From positions 1 to 12,183 of the IMG/VR virus record IMGVR_UViG_2651869691_000007: a stretch of DNA of 12,183 bases; one strand, given 5' to 3'. A program made the position numbers and the translations under genes. This document shows, one piece after another, positions 3,577-12,183 of the stretch. The notes under the pieces are model-generated. The model searched no databases. It was not told the DNA's origin and saw only the letters and a list, made by a program, of their open reading frames with translations. The stretch is from a virus (lineage: Duplodnaviria > Heunggongvirae > Uroviricota > Caudoviricetes). How positions within the stretch are numbered: position 1 is the stretch's first letter; each line of letters begins with the position of its first letter.

Positions 3577-3856
3577 GCGTCCTGTCTCCCCGGTCTTTCT
3601 GCTGGGCGAGAAAATCGCGGCACAGGCCTTTGGCTTTCAGCTCATTCAGCACAAAATCAATATCTTCATTCAGGTAGCTGAAAATATGCGGAATGTAGAG
3701 CTGATGCAGGCCGGAGAGTTCACGGTGAATCAAATCACCCCCAACAAACCGGGATACGGCGCTGGCGCGGTTGAGCTTATGGTAAGCCTCAATGCTGAGG
3801 TGTTCACGGGCGTCATGACGCGCTGAGACGGTCTGAGGGGCTTTTTTATTACGCAC
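3569..3856 (-). CDS. epsilon: P4 epsilon-like protein (95 aa; derepressor of helper prophage in P4)
   Basis: Tail of the 177-aa track ORF. Proposed start is GTG at 3856 with GGAGG 6 nt upstream, giving 95 aa ([15 protein letters not shown]...). The GTG overlaps the last codons of kil; the stop overlaps the orf151 start by 8 nt. Confidence 0.65.
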
Positions 3857-4046
3857 GGGACACCTCCACCACCGGCAGACGGGCAGCAAGGGAGAGCACA
3901 TAGTCACGGACAAGGGAACGGCGGGCGCTGCGTTCATCACCGGCGACGGTGCGAAGCATACAGATACGGGGATGACGGTCTGCGCGACGGACAGCCGCAA
4001 ACACAAAGACAAATTCAGGGTGTGAGGGGGTAAGGGTTGTAGCCAT
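3849..4046 (-). CDS. kil: kil-like 65-codon ORF, first translated gene after PLE
   Basis: ATG at 4046 preceded by strong SD AAGGAGG (4055-4060); 65 aa ([12 protein letters not shown]...VVEVSRA); forms the in-frame C-terminal part of the longer eta ORF, as described for P4 kil/eta. Confidence 0.6.
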
Positions 4047-4448
4047 GATGGCAGCCTCCTTGAAGTAACAGTTACAGCTACCACTAGAGTTCCTACGCTC
4101 ATGGGTGGTAGCCCGGACGGGGGTAGGAATACCGGCCTTCAAGGAAACCGGCCAGCCCGAAGGCTGCCCCGCCCGGACCACCATTATCTGACAGAGGCTA
4201 CGGTTTAAAAACCACAGCCAGAAAAACAGGTGTGCCGAAGCAACGACGTAAAAAAAGACGCATGGCGCGTCATATGTCGCCTTGAAGTAACTCGGGTTCC
4301 TACGCCCGGCTGCCGATTTTGCGGCAGCGGAAAAACTATATCCGCAAATGCCGGAAAAAGGCAAGCCAGAAAAAGGGAGTTTTTGCAGAGCGGGCATCAT
4401 CATGCGTCGTACCCCCGTTTGCGTCCGGCAATGCGTCCGGCCATCCAT
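3849..4448 (-). CDS. eta: eta-like long ORF (199 aa) starting upstream of PLE and containing kil in frame
   Basis: 199-aa ORF whose ATG (4448) lies upstream of the predicted PLE (4335-4364) and which spans the cI region. Matches the nested eta/kil arrangement reported for P4; translation is expected only from PLL transcripts. Confidence 0.4.
4104..4172 (-). ncRNA. cI: cI immunity RNA region (contains seqB)
   Basis: Minus-strand transcript 4172->4104 (69 nt) is closed by GGUGGU/ACCACC, has an internal CAGCC-UUCG-GGCUG tetraloop hairpin, and carries seqB (4123-4144) complementary to seqA (4280-4305) and seqC (4058-4098). Processed ends cannot be set from sequence. Confidence 0.45.
4250..4271 (-). 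terminator. Hairpin plus U7 in the PLE leader (candidate attenuator/terminator between seqA and cI)
   Basis: Minus-strand RNA: GACGC-GCCAU-GCGUC (4257-4271) followed by U7 (4250-4256). The stem is short (5 bp), so efficiency is uncertain. Confidence 0.35.
4335..4364 (-). promoter_or_regulatory. Candidate sigma70 promoter PLE (-35 TTGCCT, 18-bp spacer, -10 TATAGT)
   Basis: On the minus strand: TTGCCT (4359-4364), 18-bp spacer, TATAGT (4335-4340); sits inside eta, just downstream of the vis stop and upstream of seqA, as expected for P4 PLE. Confidence 0.4.
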
Positions 4449-4666
4449 GCGGTGACTTCAGAGTGCAGCCAGGCCACATTTTTACCGCCAAGACTCACCT
4501 GCGGCGGAAATTCCCCCTTACGGATGAGTTCGTAGATGGTCGAGCGTGACAGGCCGCACAGGTGCATCACTTCCGGAAGACGTAAAAAACGCTCCTGTGT
4601 GATGTCCGGCAGCGGCATCAGTGGCGTCACAGGGGCGGGAGAAGGGGAAGAAAAAACAGCTTGCAT
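4400..4666 (-). CDS. vis: Vis/AlpA-family small DNA-binding regulator (88 aa)
   Basis: 88-aa ORF with AlpA-type HTH ([46 protein letters not shown]); GAGG SD 7 nt upstream; first gene downstream of the PLL dyad; matches P4 vis (orf88) in size and position. Confidence 0.75.
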
Positions 4667-5128: not shown

Positions 5129-5146
5129 TGTGTCAGGGCTGGCACA
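5129..5146 (+). promoter_or_regulatory. TGT-N12-ACA dyad: candidate Delta/Ogr activator site of late promoter Psid
   Basis: Exact TGT(5129-5131)-N12-ACA(5144-5146), centred ~82 bp upstream of the sid ATG (5219), consistent with a -55-centred site and a short leader. Confidence 0.5.
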
Positions 5147-5218: not shown

Positions 5219-5928
5219 ATGTCTGACAACACCATCCCTGAATATCTGCAACCCGCACTGGCACAACTGGAAAAGGCCAGAGCCGCCCACCTTGAGAACG
5301 CCCGCCTGATGGATGAGACCGTCACGGCCATTGAACGGGCAGAGCAGGAAAAAAATGCGCTGACGACTGGCGCACGGCCTTTCGTGCAGCCAGTGGTGTC
5401 CTGAGCGACGAGCTGAAACAGCGCCACATTGAGCGCGTGGCACGCCGGGAGCTGGTACAGGAATATGACAATCTGGCCGTGGTGCTGAATTTTGAACGCG
5501 AACGCCTGAAAGGGGCGTGTGACAGCACGGCCACCGCCTACCGGAAGGCACATCATCACCTTCTGAGTCTGTATGCAGAGCATGAGCTGGAACACGCCCT
5601 GAATGAAACCTGTGAGGCGCTTGTCCGGGCAATGCATCTGAGCATTCTGGTACAGAAAAATCCGCTCGCCAACACCACCGGGCATCAGGGCTACGTCGCA
5701 CCCGATAAAGTTGTCATGCAGCAGGTGAAATCATCACTGGAACAGAAAATAAAACAGATGCAAATCAGCCTCACCGGCGAGCCGGTTCTCCGGCTGACCG
5801 GACTGTCAGCGGCAACGCTCCCGCACATGGATTATGAGGTGGCAGGCACACCGGCACAGCGCAAGGTGTGGCAGGACAAAATAGACCAGCAGGGAGCAGA
5901 GCTTAAGGCCAGAGGACTGCTGTCATGA
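5219..5928 (+). pseudogene. sid: sid (external capsid size-determination scaffold) interrupted by a frameshift
   Basis: ATG at 5219 (GAGGAG upstream; MSDNTIPEYLQPALAQ...) runs in frame 2 to TGA at 5402-5404. The continuation (…AFRAASGVLSDELKQRHIERVARRELVQEY… to 5928) is open in frame 1 from 5335. The two frames overlap only in 5335-5401, which contains an A7 run (5349-5355). A sequencing error is possible. Confidence 0.6.
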
Positions 5929-6425
5929 TTTACTGCCCGTCGTGTGGACATGTTGCTCACACCCGTCGCGCACATTTCATGGACGATGGCACCAAGATAA
6001 TGATTGCACAGTGCCGGAATATTTATTGCTCTGCGACATTTGAAGCGAGTGAAAGCTTTTTCTCTGACTGTAAAGATTCAGGAATGGAATACATTTCAGG
6101 CAAACAGAGATACCGCGATTCACTGACTTCTGCCTCCGGCAGTATGAAACGCCCGAAAAGAATGCTTGTTACCGGATATTGTTGTCGGAGATGTAAAGGC
6201 CTTGCACTGTCAAGAACATCGCGGCGTCTGTCTCAGGAAGTCACTGAACGTTTTTATGTGTGCACGGATCCGGGCTGTGGTCTGGTGTTTAAAACGCTTC
6301 AGACCATCAACCGCTTCATTGTCCGCCCGGTCACGCCGGACGAACTGGCAGAAAGCCTGCATGAAAAACAGGAACTGCCGCCAGTACGGTTAAAAACACA
6401 ATCATATTCGCTGCGTCTGGAATGA
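5925..6425 (+). CDS. delta: Delta late-gene transcriptional activator (duplicated Ogr-type zinc finger, 166 aa)
   Basis: 166 aa with two Ogr-like Cys4 modules (MIYCPSCGHVAHTRRAHFMDDGTK...CRNIYCSATF and CCRRCKGLALSRTSRR...CTDPGCGLVF); ATGA overlap with the sid stop. Confidence 0.85.
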   Translation: MIYCPSCGHVAHTRRAHFMDDGTKIMIAQCRNIYCSATFEASESFFSDCKDSGMEYISGKQRYRDSLTSASGSMKRPKRMLVTGYCCRRCKGLALSRTSRRLSQEVTERFYVCTDPGCGLVFKTLQTINRFIVRPVTPDELAESLHEKQELPPVRLKTQSYSLRLE

Positions 6426-6498: not shown

Positions 6499-7071
6499 AT
6501 GGAAAGCACAGCCTTACAGCAGGCCTTTGACACGTGTCAGAATAACAAAGCAGCATGGCTGCAACGCAAAAATGAGCTGGCTGCGGCCGAACAGGAATAT
6601 CTGCGGCTTCTGTCAGGAGAAGGCAGAAACGTCAGTCGCCTTGACGAATTACGCAATATTATCGAAGTCAGAAAATGGCAGGTGAATCAGGCCGCCGGTC
6701 GTTATATTCGTTCGCATGAAGCCGTTCAGCACATCAGCATCCGCGACCGGCTGAATGATTTTATGCAGCAGCACGGCACAGCACTGGCGGCGGCACTGGC
6801 ACCGGAGCTGATGGGCTACAGTGAGCTGACGGCCATTGCCCGAAACTGTGCCATACAGCGTGCCACAGATGCCCTGCGTGAAGCCCTCCTGTCCTGGCTT
6901 GCGAAGGGTGAAAAAATTAATTATTCCGCACAGGATAGCGACATTTTAACGACCATCGGATTCAGGCCTGACGCGGCTTCGGTGGATGACAGCCGTGAAA
7001 AATTCACCCCTGCGCAGAACATGATTTTTTCGCGTAAAAGTGCGCAACTGGCATCACGTCAGTCTGTGTAA
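6499..7071 (+). CDS. psu: Psu polarity-suppression / capsid decoration protein (190 aa)
   Basis: 190-aa ORF following delta; N-terminus MESTALQQAFDTCQNNKAAW and length match recalled P4 Psu. Confidence 0.85.
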   Translation: MESTALQQAFDTCQNNKAAWLQRKNELAAAEQEYLRLLSGEGRNVSRLDELRNIIEVRKWQVNQAAGRYIRSHEAVQHISIRDRLNDFMQQHGTALAAALAPELMGYSELTAIARNCAIQRATDALREALLSWLAKGEKINYSAQDSDILTTIGFRPDAASVDDSREKFTPAQNMIFSRKSAQLASRQSV

Positions 7072-7235: not shown

Positions 7236-7254
7236 GGCGAGGCGGGGAGAGCAT
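7236..7254. other. cos: cos-like site (GGCGAGGCGGGGAGAGCAT)
   Basis: Differs at 2 of 19 positions from the P2/P4 19-nt cohesive end as recalled (GGCGAGGCGGGGAAAGCAC); preceded by GC-rich hairpin CCGCCCCGC-AAA-GCGGGCGG (7217-7236); lies right after psu, where P4 cos is expected. Confidence 0.55.
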
Positions 7255-7272: not shown

Positions 7273-7962
7273 TCATTTATTTTGTAATGCCGCATCAAAT
7301 CTGGTCTTGAGATCTTGGAATGGGATAACGAGTTTATCGATATAATCTTTATTATTATTTTGTAGAATTGCTTCAACAAAATCATTTAGAGGTGCATAGT
7401 TTTCTAATACTTTAGAATCGATAAAATCTTTATAGGACATACATTCAGCACCAATGCTAAGGCTTTCACCTATATACTTTTGTTCAAGAGATCTAATACA
7501 AGGAAAACCAATATCGTTCTCTCGTAGGGCTATAGAAATATTTTTGATTAATTCAGTTATTAACATTTCATCATTAGTTGGTGAAAATACAGATGAATCT
7601 CTATTTTTCCTGAATTGATGTACCCAGCAAAAATATTGGCATAGATAGAATCTTGTACTATCAATATAATATTGATCCGACGATAGGTCATTGTGATCTT
7701 TAATATAACATAGCCTTCCTAAAAAACCATTTGCAGCACTAAGTAATGTTAACCCCCAACGTCCGATTTCAAGATCTCTTGCTTTTTTAAAATTATAAGC
7801 ACGTTCATCCTCTTTAATTCTCTGTTCACTTTCATATTTCAACTTATTTTTAAATGATTCTAACTCTCTTTTATCAATATGTTGTAAAAAAGCCTTACAA
7901 ACAAATCCAATAATTGCAAATGAAATGCTTGATGACAAAATACCTTCCCAAAAGCTACTCAT
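7273..7962 (-). CDS. Small membrane-anchored partner protein (229 aa) of the RT-nitrilase gene
   Basis: N-terminal hydrophobic helix (ILSSSISFAIIGFVCKAFL); ATG overlaps the upstream gene stop as ATGA (7959-7962) with GAGG SD; ~30% GC; no motif I can recognise in the soluble part. Confidence 0.75.
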   Translation of the reverse strand: MSSFWEGILSSSISFAIIGFVCKAFLQHIDKRELESFKNKLKYESEQRIKEDERAYNFKKARDLEIGRWGLTLLSAANGFLGRLCYIKDHNDLSSDQYYIDSTRFYLCQYFCWVHQFRKNRDSSVFSPTNDEMLITELIKNISIALRENDIGFPCIRSLEQKYIGESLSIGAECMSYKDFIDSKVLENYAPLNDFVEAILQNNNKDYIDKLVIPFQDLKTRFDAALQNK

Positions 7963-10835
7963 TTCTCACCTCGCTCTAATAGAGCATTATAGTCAAACCC
8001 TGGAGGATTGTGTTTAATAGTATCGGAGTTAATTCTGAATGAACGATATTGAGCCTCTCTCAATGCATATATATTTAAAGTAGTAGTTAGGATGCAATGG
8101 TTTTCCCCACCTTTTACATATATCTTATTTGAAATAGTGCTACTGGTCGGTTGTAGAACACAAGAACCGCCATAATGCGAAGTATTTGATTGAGCCACAT
8201 AACAATGTAAATCCCGTGTCGCTGACTCAGTGATATGTTGATAATAATTTATATCTTGATTCCATACGCAAGCAAATAAAATATCCAACTGCGAACGAAA
8301 TAATGCTCTATGCTCGATATTAGCCAGTTCAAAACAGTTGTATGTAGAAAATGATACGTTTTTCCACTTAATCAAATGATACCGTTGTTTACTAGGTTTA
8401 GGAGAGGATATTTTTAACCTTAAAGAATTCAGCATCGTAATCTCACTAGGTGCGTAATGATTTTTCACTCGAAAAACTAACATACTGGATTTGTGTTTAA
8501 AGTTTGAAGTATAAGGCAGCATTTCAACCAAAATATTATATGCGCGTTCGTTAATAACCCAATGCTCTAATCCGAAAATCAAAGATATTTGTTTTCTCCT
8601 TGAATGTGCTGCCATAAAAGGTAACCACGACACAGGAATTGATAACTCAGGGAGTAGTAATATCTGCACATTTTCTTCAGTTGCCGAGTTGAGAATACGA
8701 TAAAGGTTTCTTTGTCGTTCATAACTTAAATTTGGAGACTGATCTTTTCTGCAAGCACTTTCAATATTACGACGTTCAACTCTCATATTTGCCAACGCAA
8801 CTTTTATTGTGTCATTACCACTTCTATCATCAATTCCTACCTTTATTTCAAGAGCTTTATTATCTTTTATCTTAGTAACAGAGCAATTTTTTAAGTGATG
8901 CTTATTTTCATGCGTAAACTTATGTAGTTTTCTTGTATGAAGAGCATCAATCAAATCGAAAAGCTGCTTTTCATCAGCATGAATATATCTAGGGGTTTTA
9001 TTTAATTTATCATTATCAAGTGGAATACCATGCATCTTACTGTATAAATTCTCCTCAGTAAGATCTCCTTTATATTTAGTATAGTTAGCTAAAGGCCAAG
9101 ACACTAGATTATGACGAATCAAATTACTGCTTCTAAATCTTTCAATTAGAACAGACATTCCATCGGACTGTTTAATTAAAGATTTCAAACCTTCCAAAGC
9201 TCTATTTTGTGGCTCTTTATCACCTAAAATGACATTTAAATCTAACAAAGCCAAATTCAAACAAAGAGAAATATCAATGTATTTCTGCATTCCATTTTTA
9301 AGTTTTGGAGATATAACACTATCACCTTCCTTCCACTTCATTTTATTAATTGATTCTTTAATTTGTTTGTAAAAGGCGATTGAAAATCCATATTTTCTTG
9401 TAATTAATGTATACGATAGAACTTTCTCCCATAACCGACTGAACCTTAGAGAATTTTCACCTTTAAAAAACAGCGTTATTTGCTTTAAGGTATTCTCATT
9501 CGATGGAAGATTGCAAAGCCTATGAGCTAAGATATGTGATGATATATATTTTGATAATTCAGTTTCATTCTCTGCCAAACCTACAATACTTCTAAATTTA
9601 TTTGCCGAACCATCAAGTAATATATCATAAGCAAATTTATCGAGATCGCTAGATATATGTTCTTCCGGTAAAAAACGAAATGCACTGCTTCTGTTCTCAA
9701 TTTCTTGTTTGAAGACTTGTAAACCAGCCAAACTATGATCTTTATTGAAATAATGAAAAATCAATTTATCCTTTTGAATTGGTAATTCATGATAACTCTC
9801 GGTCAACGTAAAGCCTTTCTCATCATTCGCTGCCTGTTTGATGAATCCATTAAGGGTTCGCTCTATGAATTTTATTACTTCTTCACCTTTATCTTCTTTT
9901 TTAATGTCCGGAGATGAAAAAACTAAAAGAATATCATCCACATAGCGACCGTAGTACGATGGATTAATTTTTGATTTAATATCTTTATCAAAACCCATTA
10001 AATACCAATTAGATAATATGGCAGAAGAAGTAAATCCAATTGGAATGCCTTTTGATGAAGGAGTTGAATGTGTCACACCAATATATGGAGATATTTTCTC
10101 TCTGTATTTTTGATGCATCAACCTCAATTTACTATTCAACAACATAGAAAGAGCTTTAATTTCTTCTAATTGTTCTTCGTCAATAATTCTATCAATGGCA
10201 TCAAAATCTATATCTATATTATAATAAAAACCCTTAAGATCCAGAGAAAGAATTGCAACATCATTTCGCTCTTTTTCTATAACTTCTATCGCTTTATCGA
10301 TACCACCATCTCGCCATTTATTATAATTATCAATGTATCTTTCAAAGATATTTTTTGAGGAGTTTTTTGGCGCATCGAAACTATTCTTAGAATATTTTTT
10401 TATTACTTTTGATATTCTATTTCCATAAACCGAATCAGAAAACTTGTCATCTAGCATTGAACCAACAAAGATAGACCAGAGTGTTTCTATTAAATATATT
10501 TCAATAGGAGCAACGATCAAATAATTTACAGCACCTACTTTGTATTCATCTGATGTCTTATTATTACTTAAAAAAAGAGCTCCGCTCGTTTGCTCAATAT
10601 CCAAATGGCTATCAATTTTTTTTGGTAATAATTCAACATCAATTTTATTTAGCCACTCATTAAAGTTAATGTCATTATTATTTTCAAAAAAATCAACCAC
10701 TTTTTCTATTTTTTCGTCATAGAGAGAATCTTCAAATTGAGCGATTTCTTCCTTTAGGAAAAAATTTAAGTTTTCGTAGTAAGCATATGACTTAAGACAA
10801 TTATATGCACTAACAACTATATCTTTTGTAATCAT
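7959..10835 (-). CDS. Reverse transcriptase fused to C-terminal nitrilase (carbon-nitrogen hydrolase) domain, 958 aa; candidate defence-associated RT
   Basis: RT motifs: LSLDLKGFYYNIDIDF (aa 196-211), PIGFTSSAILSNWYL (aa 265-279), YGRYVDDILLVF with YVDD encoded at 9933-9944. CN-hydrolase signature: IKVALANMRV, LLLPE (Glu730, 8646-8648), FRVKNHY (Lys), YNCFE (Cys834 at 8334-8336, Glu836). N-terminal ~185 aa and the aa 310-670 region are unassigned. Confidence 0.85.
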   Translation of the reverse strand: MITKDIVVSAYNCLKSYAYYENLNFFLKEEIAQFEDSLYDEKIEKVVDFFENNNDINFNEWLNKIDVELLPKKIDSHLDIEQTSGALFLSNNKTSDEYKVGAVNYLIVAPIEIYLIETLWSIFVGSMLDDKFSDSVYGNRISKVIKKYSKNSFDAPKNSSKNIFERYIDNYNKWRDGGIDKAIEVIEKERNDVAILSLDLKGFYYNIDIDFDAIDRIIDEEQLEEIKALSMLLNSKLRLMHQKYREKISPYIGVTHSTPSSKGIPIGFTSSAILSNWYLMGFDKDIKSKINPSYYGRYVDDILLVFSSPDIKKEDKGEEVIKFIERTLNGFIKQAANDEKGFTLTESYHELPIQKDKLIFHYFNKDHSLAGLQVFKQEIENRSSAFRFLPEEHISSDLDKFAYDILLDGSANKFRSIVGLAENETELSKYISSHILAHRLCNLPSNENTLKQITLFFKGENSLRFSRLWEKVLSYTLITRKYGFSIAFYKQIKESINKMKWKEGDSVISPKLKNGMQKYIDISLCLNLALLDLNVILGDKEPQNRALEGLKSLIKQSDGMSVLIERFRSSNLIRHNLVSWPLANYTKYKGDLTEENLYSKMHGIPLDNDKLNKTPRYIHADEKQLFDLIDALHTRKLHKFTHENKHHLKNCSVTKIKDNKALEIKVGIDDRSGNDTIKVALANMRVERRNIESACRKDQSPNLSYERQRNLYRILNSATEENVQILLLPELSIPVSWLPFMAAHSRRKQISLIFGLEHWVINERAYNILVEMLPYTSNFKHKSSMLVFRVKNHYAPSEITMLNSLRLKISSPKPSKQRYHLIKWKNVSFSTYNCFELANIEHRALFRSQLDILFACVWNQDINYYQHITESATRDLHCYVAQSNTSHYGGSCVLQPTSSTISNKIYVKGGENHCILTTTLNIYALREAQYRSFRINSDTIKHNPPGFDYNALLERGEK

Positions 10836-10926: not shown

Positions 10927-12183
10927 TTAATATTTTTTTGCAAAATCAAATGGTGTTACGAAAGTCTCACGATTTGCTGATAGGAAATCCGCCCACCATT
11001 GCATCATCAATCGACGTTCGTCCAAATGCTCTGAAGTATGGATATAAGCTGCACGAACATTATTGCGCTCCGAGTGGCTTAACTGACGTTCTATCGCATC
11101 ATCACTCCAAAGCCCCGACTCCCCCAAAGCACCACGCGCCATTGTTCTAAAACCATGCCCACATACTTCCGTTTGTGTGTCGTAGCCCATAGTCCTGAGC
11201 GCATTATTAACTGTGTTTTCGCTCATAACTTTATTGGGATCATGATCACCGGGAAACAGTCTAGGATTATCTCCACTAAGCTTCTTCAACTCATCCAGCA
11301 AAGCTAGAGCCTGAGTGCTCAATGGAACAATATGTTCCTCTTTCATCTTCATCCCACGATAGGAGTAACGCACACCTTCGATTTCTTCACGCCGCGCCGG
11401 TATCCGCCAGCAGGCGTTATCAAAATCAAACTCATCCCATCGGGCAAATCGCATCTCACTAGAGCGAACGAAGGTAAGTAGAGATAACTCGACTGCAATA
11501 CGCGTCATTTTGCGGCCACGATATGCCGCAAGGCGTGCCAGAAACTCAGGGAAACGGCTGGAAGGTAGAGCTGGATAGTGTCGTGCTTTAGTTGTCGATA
11601 ACGCACCAGCCATATCGCTAGCCGGGTTCGAGTCGATATAATCGTTCTGTACGGCATACCGCATAATGGCCGTGACGCGCTGTTGCAGGCGCTGAGCGAC
11701 GTCGTGTTTACCACTGACATCAACTTTTTTAATCGGGGCTAATAGGTGGCTAGTTTTGAGCTGGCGAATGTCGGACGAACCGATATGAGGGAAGATATAA
11801 AGCTCAAGATAGCGAAGAACACGCGATCGATGGTCTTCACTCCAGCGCTTGTTACTGGCATGCCATTCGCGAGCAATGGTTTCGAAGGTATATGCCCCCG
11901 AATTCTCGGCCTGAGCTTCTTTCTGTTCGGCTTTTGGGTCAATGCCCTGCACTAACAGCTTTTTAGCTTCGTCGCGCTTTGCTCTTGCCTGAGCAAGCGT
12001 CACTGTAGGCCAAACACCAAAAGCGAGGCGATCCTCTTTTTTGTCAGAGGGGCGTCGGTATTTCATGCGCCAGTATTTAGAACCCTTGGCCGAAACCTCG
12101 AGATACAAACCGCCGCCATCGGCCATTTTGTATGTTTTGTCTTTTGGCTTTGCGGTCTCGACCTGTCTGGCGTTGAGCTTCAT
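10927..12183 (-). CDS. int: P4-family tyrosine integrase (418 aa), start codon at window edge
   Basis: N-terminus MKLNARQVETAKPKDKTYKMADGGGLYLEVSAKGSKYWRMKYR typical of P4/CP4-57-type integrases; catalytic-domain boxes TFVRSSEMR, HGFRTMARG, VRAAYIHTSE. ATG occupies 12181-12183, so upstream extension cannot be excluded. Confidence 0.9.
   Translation of the reverse strand: MKLNARQVETAKPKDKTYKMADGGGLYLEVSAKGSKYWRMKYRRPSDKKEDRLAFGVWPTVTLAQARAKRDEAKKLLVQGIDPKAEQKEAQAENSGAYTFETIAREWHASNKRWSEDHRSRVLRYLELYIFPHIGSSDIRQLKTSHLLAPIKKVDVSGKHDVAQRLQQRVTAIMRYAVQNDYIDSNPASDMAGALSTTKARHYPALPSSRFPEFLARLAAYRGRKMTRIAVELSLLTFVRSSEMRFARWDEFDFDNACWRIPARREEIEGVRYSYRGMKMKEEHIVPLSTQALALLDELKKLSGDNPRLFPGDHDPNKVMSENTVNNALRTMGYDTQTEVCGHGFRTMARGALGESGLWSDDAIERQLSHSERNNVRAAYIHTSEHLDERRLMMQWWADFLSANRETFVTPFDFAKKY

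Follow-up and report, generated by a model that had tools for sequence, protein, structure and literature searches.

A probable sid pseudogene in a P4-like satellite prophage of Escherichia coli, formed by a 25-bp deletion between direct repeats

The sid gene of the P4-like satellite analyzed here is divided between two overlapping reading frames, raising the question of whether the element can still make the external scaffold Sid, and whether the split reflects a true lesion, an artefact of sequencing or assembly, a recoding signal, or a division into separately useful parts. We put at about 90% the probability that sid is a recent pseudogene, produced by the loss of 25 bp between two copies of CGCTGACG, and that the element makes no functional external scaffold. 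The lesion is an ordinary loss-of-function mutation in a well-understood gene and involves no new biological mechanism.

The whole stretch of DNA analyzed, 12,183 bp in length and hereafter called the window, is filled by an E. coli satellite prophage of the P4 type. Across ori-sid-delta it shares 95% identity with phage P4, and its whole length is 99.6% identical to P4-like elements that several complete E. coli genomes carry at tRNA-Leu (leuX). The NCBI draft contig JHTA01000006.1 (assembly GCA_001266255.1) matches the window at 100% identity, and the closest complete genome, NZ_CP062910 (E. coli Res13-Lact-EA06-22), carries a relative with an intact sid (locus L002) that is distinguished from the window over 12.2 kb by 29 substitutions and a single 25-bp gap. 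In the flanking leuX-ahr DNA, identity to E. coli reaches 99.2%. The core P4-like gene set (int, psu, delta and sid, with alpA, epsilon and alpha; PMC8628076) is co-localized, in conserved order and integrated at a tRNA gene. Within this set sid is the sole broken component; the other ORFs are full length, with 0–4 amino-acid differences from L002, and the nucleotide differences in those genes are few and mostly synonymous.

The intact alpha gene occupies positions 317–2650 on the minus strand and is separated from the Icd-like/Ash region, with its CI (C4) RNA and targets (4101–4341), by DUF5375, ORF151 and an epsilon-type derepression protein, in this order. An intact AlpA-type HTH regulator follows at 4400–4666, and the ori repeats lie between it and sid. 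Downstream of sid on the plus strand are the Ogr/Delta transactivator gene delta (5925–6425), intact and identical to that of L002, and psu (6499–7071; PF07455), also intact, with which the sid-delta-psu late operon ends. A variant of cos at 7236–7254 on the plus strand is followed by a two-gene defence system in the psu-int hotspot (7273–10835, minus strand) and by the intact integrase gene (10927–12183).

Several features of this layout merit description in their own right. Rfam matches on the minus strand correspond to the P4 immunity RNAs, comprising C4/CI RNA (4101–4188), isrK (4251–4328) and the a1/b1 target element (4289–4341); long called ORFs, such as one at 3849–4448 with an Ash domain, overlap these RNAs at 4101–4341. 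The cohesive-end sequence at 7236–7254 reads GGCGAGGCGGGGAGAGCAT, with two mismatches relative to the GGCGAGGCGGGGAAAGCAC of P4 and P2, and over the 87 bp flanking cos the identity to the P4 cos junction is 96.6%. The defence system at 7273–10835 encodes an RT_UG5-nitrilase of 958 aa and RTasTM, its 229-aa transmembrane partner, each of them a full-length PADLOC match. The pair is apparently the reverse-transcriptase/nitrilase system that PMC9122126 validated from P4-like hotspots. Copies of att lie at 2531–2549 and 15129–15148 of locus L003: the core beside int lies inside tRNA-Leu and matches the P4 attP core exactly over 20 bp, while one nucleotide is missing from the distal copy, beyond alpha (TGGTGC-GAAGGCCGGACTC). 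The distal att position of L002 likewise has at least the 14-nt core segment GAAGGCCGGACTC and the base before it. Judged by the distance between the att cores, the element is ~12.6 kb long and includes the RT_UG5-nitrilase defence system, whereas P4 is 11.6 kb, a difference in length of roughly 8%.

The 5′ ORF of sid runs on the plus strand from ATG 5219 to TGA 5402–5404 (61 codons), and the -1 frame, which follows a TGA at 5332–5334, is open on the same strand from 5335 to 5928. Residues 1–47 of the 5′ fragment (5219–5404) match the Sid of the intact relative and are succeeded by an out-of-frame tail, TGARPFVQPVVS; residue 48 (T) is likewise preserved, being re-encoded by the repeat copy that was kept. 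Homology to Sid residues 56–244 resumes at the junction in the 3′ part (5335–5928). That the two ORFs are not a chance pair follows from their matches to consecutive parts of PHROG 6165 and to the solved structure of Sid: the 5′ ORF covers profile positions 2–49 (E 1.3e-15) and the 3′ ORF positions 82–241 (E 8.8e-75), and the -1 frame matches residues 53–244 of 7JW1 (E 6.9e-121). PHROG 6165 contains P4 Sid, although the family is mislabelled there as Psu-like. Searches of Pfam and NCBIfam yielded no usable Sid model, even with the intact protein as query, and the family assignment was made with PHROGs and the PDB.

P4 sid is 735 bp long and encodes 244 aa. Homology to it extends over the whole length of the protein but is spread over two frames, so that the window sid offers neither a single uninterrupted ORF of ~243–245 aa nor a single polypeptide combining stem, dimer knot and gpN-binding C-terminus. 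The preliminary description had reported a split sid with a stop at 5402–5404 and a -1 continuation over 5335–5928, and had set a joined product of about 236 aa against a length of about 244 aa for P4 Sid; all of these coordinates and both figures hold. Upstream of the gene, in a region ~95% identical to P4, an intact TGT-N12-ACA dyad (5129–5146, plus strand) was located by pattern matching and, by analogy with P4, putatively serves the late promoter Psid as its Ogr/Delta activator site.

Alignment to P4 sid localizes the difference between the two genes to one gap of exactly 25 bp, outside which nucleotide identity is ~97%. The deletion junction falls within 5358–5365, 3–10 nt downstream of the A7 homopolymer; at these positions only one copy of the 8-bp direct repeat CGCTGACG is left (plus strand). 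In L002, two copies of CGCTGACG lie 25 bp apart at 6858–6865 and 6883–6890, in the arrangement ...AAAAAAATG CGCTGACG CAGGCCGACGGAAACGA CGCTGACG ACTGG..., and the segment lost from the window reads CGCTGACGCAGGCCGACGGAAACGA in this closest intact relative. An A/G difference limits the repeat in P4 to 5 bp (CGCTG). A short repeat flanks the lost segment in L002 and is kept in exactly one copy in the window, and this anatomy indicates that replication slippage or microhomology-mediated deletion is the most likely cause. Since 25 is not a multiple of 3, the sid frame shifts after codon 48 and reaches the stop at 5402–5404; and since 25 nt equal eight codons plus one nucleotide, the deletion explains both the frameshift and the discrepancy between 236 and 244 aa.

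The preliminary description had placed the lesion inside the 5335–5404 overlap and had suspected a short deletion rather than a single base, both of which this alignment bears out. It had also pointed to the A7 run: the run is indeed present at 5349–5355 on the plus strand, but it is not the site of the lesion, and we rejected an A7 slip in the window because the run is unchanged relative to P4, L002 and other relatives.

Slippage at the same homopolymer was nevertheless recovered in other members of the lineage. A sid frameshift caused by A7 → A6 occurs in loci L008 (SRR16292318_2311, positions 740–1473), L009 (SRR12247696_777, 117–850) and L010 (NZ_CP013662.1, 1391–2124), leaving in each a 47-aa 5′ ORF and the same 163-aa 3′ ORF as in the window. 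The copy in NZ_CP013662.1 (E. coli 08-00022) is labelled 'glycoprotein 3, frameshifted' by PGAP, while the two Logan cases (SRR16292318 and SRR12247696) may be either real or homopolymer read errors. The A7 → A6 alleles resemble the window allele in their satellite lineage, in their -1 outcome and in the ~70-bp stretch affected, but their lesion is independent of the 25-bp deletion. Two independent lesions in a short stretch of sid indicate that loss of this gene recurs at low frequency.

Whether the window allele is itself real was assessed from its distribution. An exact look-up of the 61-aa product returned two NCBI contigs only, JHTA01000006.1 and JHTC01000005.1 (GCA_001266305.1). The latter has the same junction and differs from the window by 3 SNPs (1439, 1727 and 3750), at two of which it carries the base of the intact relative. 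A search of 5,426 complete E. coli genomes with a 38-mer spanning the junction found no match, and a junction 29-mer was absent from species-representative genomes, IMG/VR and JGI metagenomes. A locus search of genome contigs with intact Sid recovered one locus only and added nothing of use. All 12 relatives at ≥98.6% identity span 16–25 bases more than the window. With the junction confined to two drafts and the relatives longer, the allele is private and apparently recent.

The same pair of contigs bears on the possibility that the strain carries an intact sid from which 25 bp were lost in silico. The consecutive accession prefixes (JHTA and JHTC) suggest that the two assemblies probably come from the same project and pipeline, in which case an error could be shared. 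However, the 3 SNPs separating them within the element mean that they come from different data, and the sequences point to a deletion inherited through this slight divergence. Moreover, a 25-bp loss is atypical of read-level error, assembler k-mers are far longer than a repeat of 8 bp, and the anatomy is exactly what a biological direct-repeat deletion leaves. The size of this deletion, the repeats that bounded it and its occurrence in both assemblies lead us to regard an artefact as very unlikely.

A separate caution applies to Sid sequences in databases, where hundreds of fragments (clusters P0002–P0030) are 'partial' proteins at contig ends that terminate within the first ~90 codons of sid or start just after them. 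Breaks within sid or next to it are therefore frequent in short-read assemblies, probably as a consequence of several P4-like copies per genome, and such contig-end partials should not be taken for truncations. One further sequence, P0033 (229 aa, on a 5.7-Mb NCBI contig), is Sid-like over its C-terminal ~180 residues, while its N-terminal ~50 residues do not align; the N-terminus is similar to a P2-type tail-fibre segment, and this composition suggests a rearrangement joining helper-like and satellite DNA.

A real deletion could still leave a partly active gene if ribosomes returned to the Sid frame. An A_AAA_AAT heptamer at 5350–5356 is in phase for a -1 slip into that frame (GAA AAA AAT), and an RNA hairpin is predicted within the sid coding sequence at 5363–5397 on the plus strand (-22.2 kcal/mol, z -4.3), where it is retained in a longer fold. 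The deletion brought this hairpin from ~31–34 nt to 6–9 nt downstream of the heptamer, so that an in-phase heptamer with structure at a spacing of 5–9 nt, as expected of a -1 frameshift site, is present through a juxtaposition that the deletion created. The hairpin also occurs in P4, with one G-U replacing an A-U. Hairpin-aided slippage on the heptamer would produce a Sid of 236 aa with KC in place of NALTQADGND, and the gene would be only partly inactivated.

Programmed frameshifting as the native state of sid was rejected, as the two-frame architecture is not kept among homologs: close relatives and homologs at 55–66% identity are single-frame. The preliminary description had raised two-frame homologs as the mark of programmed frameshifting, and an extra base restoring a single frame as the mark of an error. 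No such homologs were found, the second, independent assembly has the deletion as well, and the reading of sid as lesioned stands. The narrower proposal, that the deletion built by chance a canonical-looking -1 cassette and that the allele is leaky, yielding a little 236-aa Sid with a stem 8 residues shorter, strikes us as highly improbable. Although the heptamer is in the correct phase, both the A7 run and the hairpin are older than the deletion. Heptamers ending in AAC, decoded by the same tRNA-Asn, are of low efficiency in E. coli, and unstimulated motifs reach at most ~10 times the 0.055% background (PMC4066793). The AGGA directly 5′ of the heptamer would be too close to act as a dnaX-type stimulator. 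Each shell, furthermore, requires 60 copies of Sid, and the stem, which has an invariant length among homologs, would be 8 residues short in the recoded product. If the allele were leaky, partial or altered capsid size redirection could result.

The structural consequences of the deletion favor the pseudogene reading. In the cryo-EM structure of the P4 procapsid, Sid residues 11–137 form a 100-angstrom two-helix coiled-coil stem whose tips provide the trimer contacts at the threefold axes, residues 139–189 form the dimer knot, and residues 161–165 and 219–224 contact gpN (PMC7552001). An AlphaFold model of the intact homolog P0031 (pLDDT 85.6) shows helices at 8–52 and 55–65, a tip loop at 66–71 and a helix at 72–138; on this layout, the deletion removes the end of helix 8–52 and the kink of alpha-1 at 53–54, in the distal stem. 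Beyond residue 48 the sid product is entirely out of frame, and the 61-residue peptide keeps only the first ~two thirds of helix alpha-1; the rest of the coiled-coil stem, the dimer knot and the gpN contacts are encoded in the -1 frame. The 34 full-length homologs at 53–66% identity are 243–245 aa long, with no indel at the deleted segment, for which their consensus is L-E-Q-E-N-G-x-D, and stem length looks tightly constrained in this alignment.

One could instead suppose that the gene is split but functional, with the 163-aa ORF acting as a Psu-like, hexamer-binding dimer that builds no cage and was possibly selected. Gene callers do predict this ORF, starting it at GTG 5437; its product would still have the dimer knot and the two gpN-contacting regions, and Sid and Psu share a fold (PMC7552001). 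Yet no convincing Shine-Dalgarno sequence was found before GTG 5437 or the other in-frame starts of the 3′ part of sid. Any 3′ product lacks alpha-1, and the stem coiled-coil therefore cannot form. An intact psu is already present in the element, and the confinement of the allele to two near-identical isolates gives no sign of selection. We accordingly see very little prospect of a functional role for the fragment.

Given a sid pseudogene, the genes downstream may or may not be affected. The ATG of delta overlaps the sid stop (ATGA) and has its own AGAGGA site 8 nt upstream, so delta can initiate on its own. The premature stop leaves 520 nt untranslated before delta, and a C-over-G scan of this stretch detected moderate rut-like windows only, with C/G up to 1.5 near 5630–5740. 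Rho-dependent polarity on delta and psu is therefore a possibility rather than a finding.

The following sequence of events is proposed for the allele. Slippage between the two CGCTGACG copies would have deleted 25 bp from sid, and the resulting truncated peptide, together with a -1-frame remainder that has no ribosome-binding site of its own, would provide no external scaffold. On induction by a helper, no T=4 cage would form, multimers of the satellite genome would be packaged only into T=7 heads and at low efficiency, and the yield of helper phage would no longer be suppressed by the satellite. The genes for replication, immunity, transactivation (delta), psu, the integrase and the defence system are still intact.

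This packaging and helper-yield phenotype is inferred for the window allele from P4 sid mutants. The P4 sid1 and sid-null mutants (Shore et al. 1978; reviewed in PMC6893505) resemble the window allele in the early truncation of the same gene in the same sid-delta-psu operon, and the outcome expected of the window allele parallels that of P4 sid-null, with no T=4 redirection, multimers in helper-sized heads and a higher helper yield. The difference lies in origin, as sid1 is a laboratory amber point mutation, whereas the window allele arose naturally, in a prophage, by loss of 25 bp between direct repeats. Size redirection is the only means by which P4 suppresses its helper, and a sid mutant lets much more helper be made; sid mutants are transduced at low efficiency in large heads (PMC6893505), and P4 sid1 exists as a propagable stock (PMC9122126). 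Because sid mutants are still transduced in large heads, the satellite would be handicapped rather than immobile. A P2-sized genome is 33.6 kb; three copies of the ~12.6-kb element exceed this length, which may worsen packaging.

The window element is a natural counterpart of laboratory sid-null P4, and an example of the Type B P4-like satellites described by Moura de Sousa and Rocha (PMC8628076), with which it shares the loss of one core component, six of the seven being intact. In that survey the pseudogenized component is usually alpA, that pseudogene being conserved across clades, whereas in the window it is sid and is private to two isolates. The locus is best annotated as a P4-like satellite with a sid pseudogene, rather than as a pair of hypothetical genes (61 and 163 aa). 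Such a satellite would not shrink helper capsids, and would hence spread poorly and not curb a P2-like helper by that route, while its RT_UG5-nitrilase defence system, immunity region and integrase, all working-looking, would still be carried. The element provides one data point on how chromosomal satellites begin to decay.
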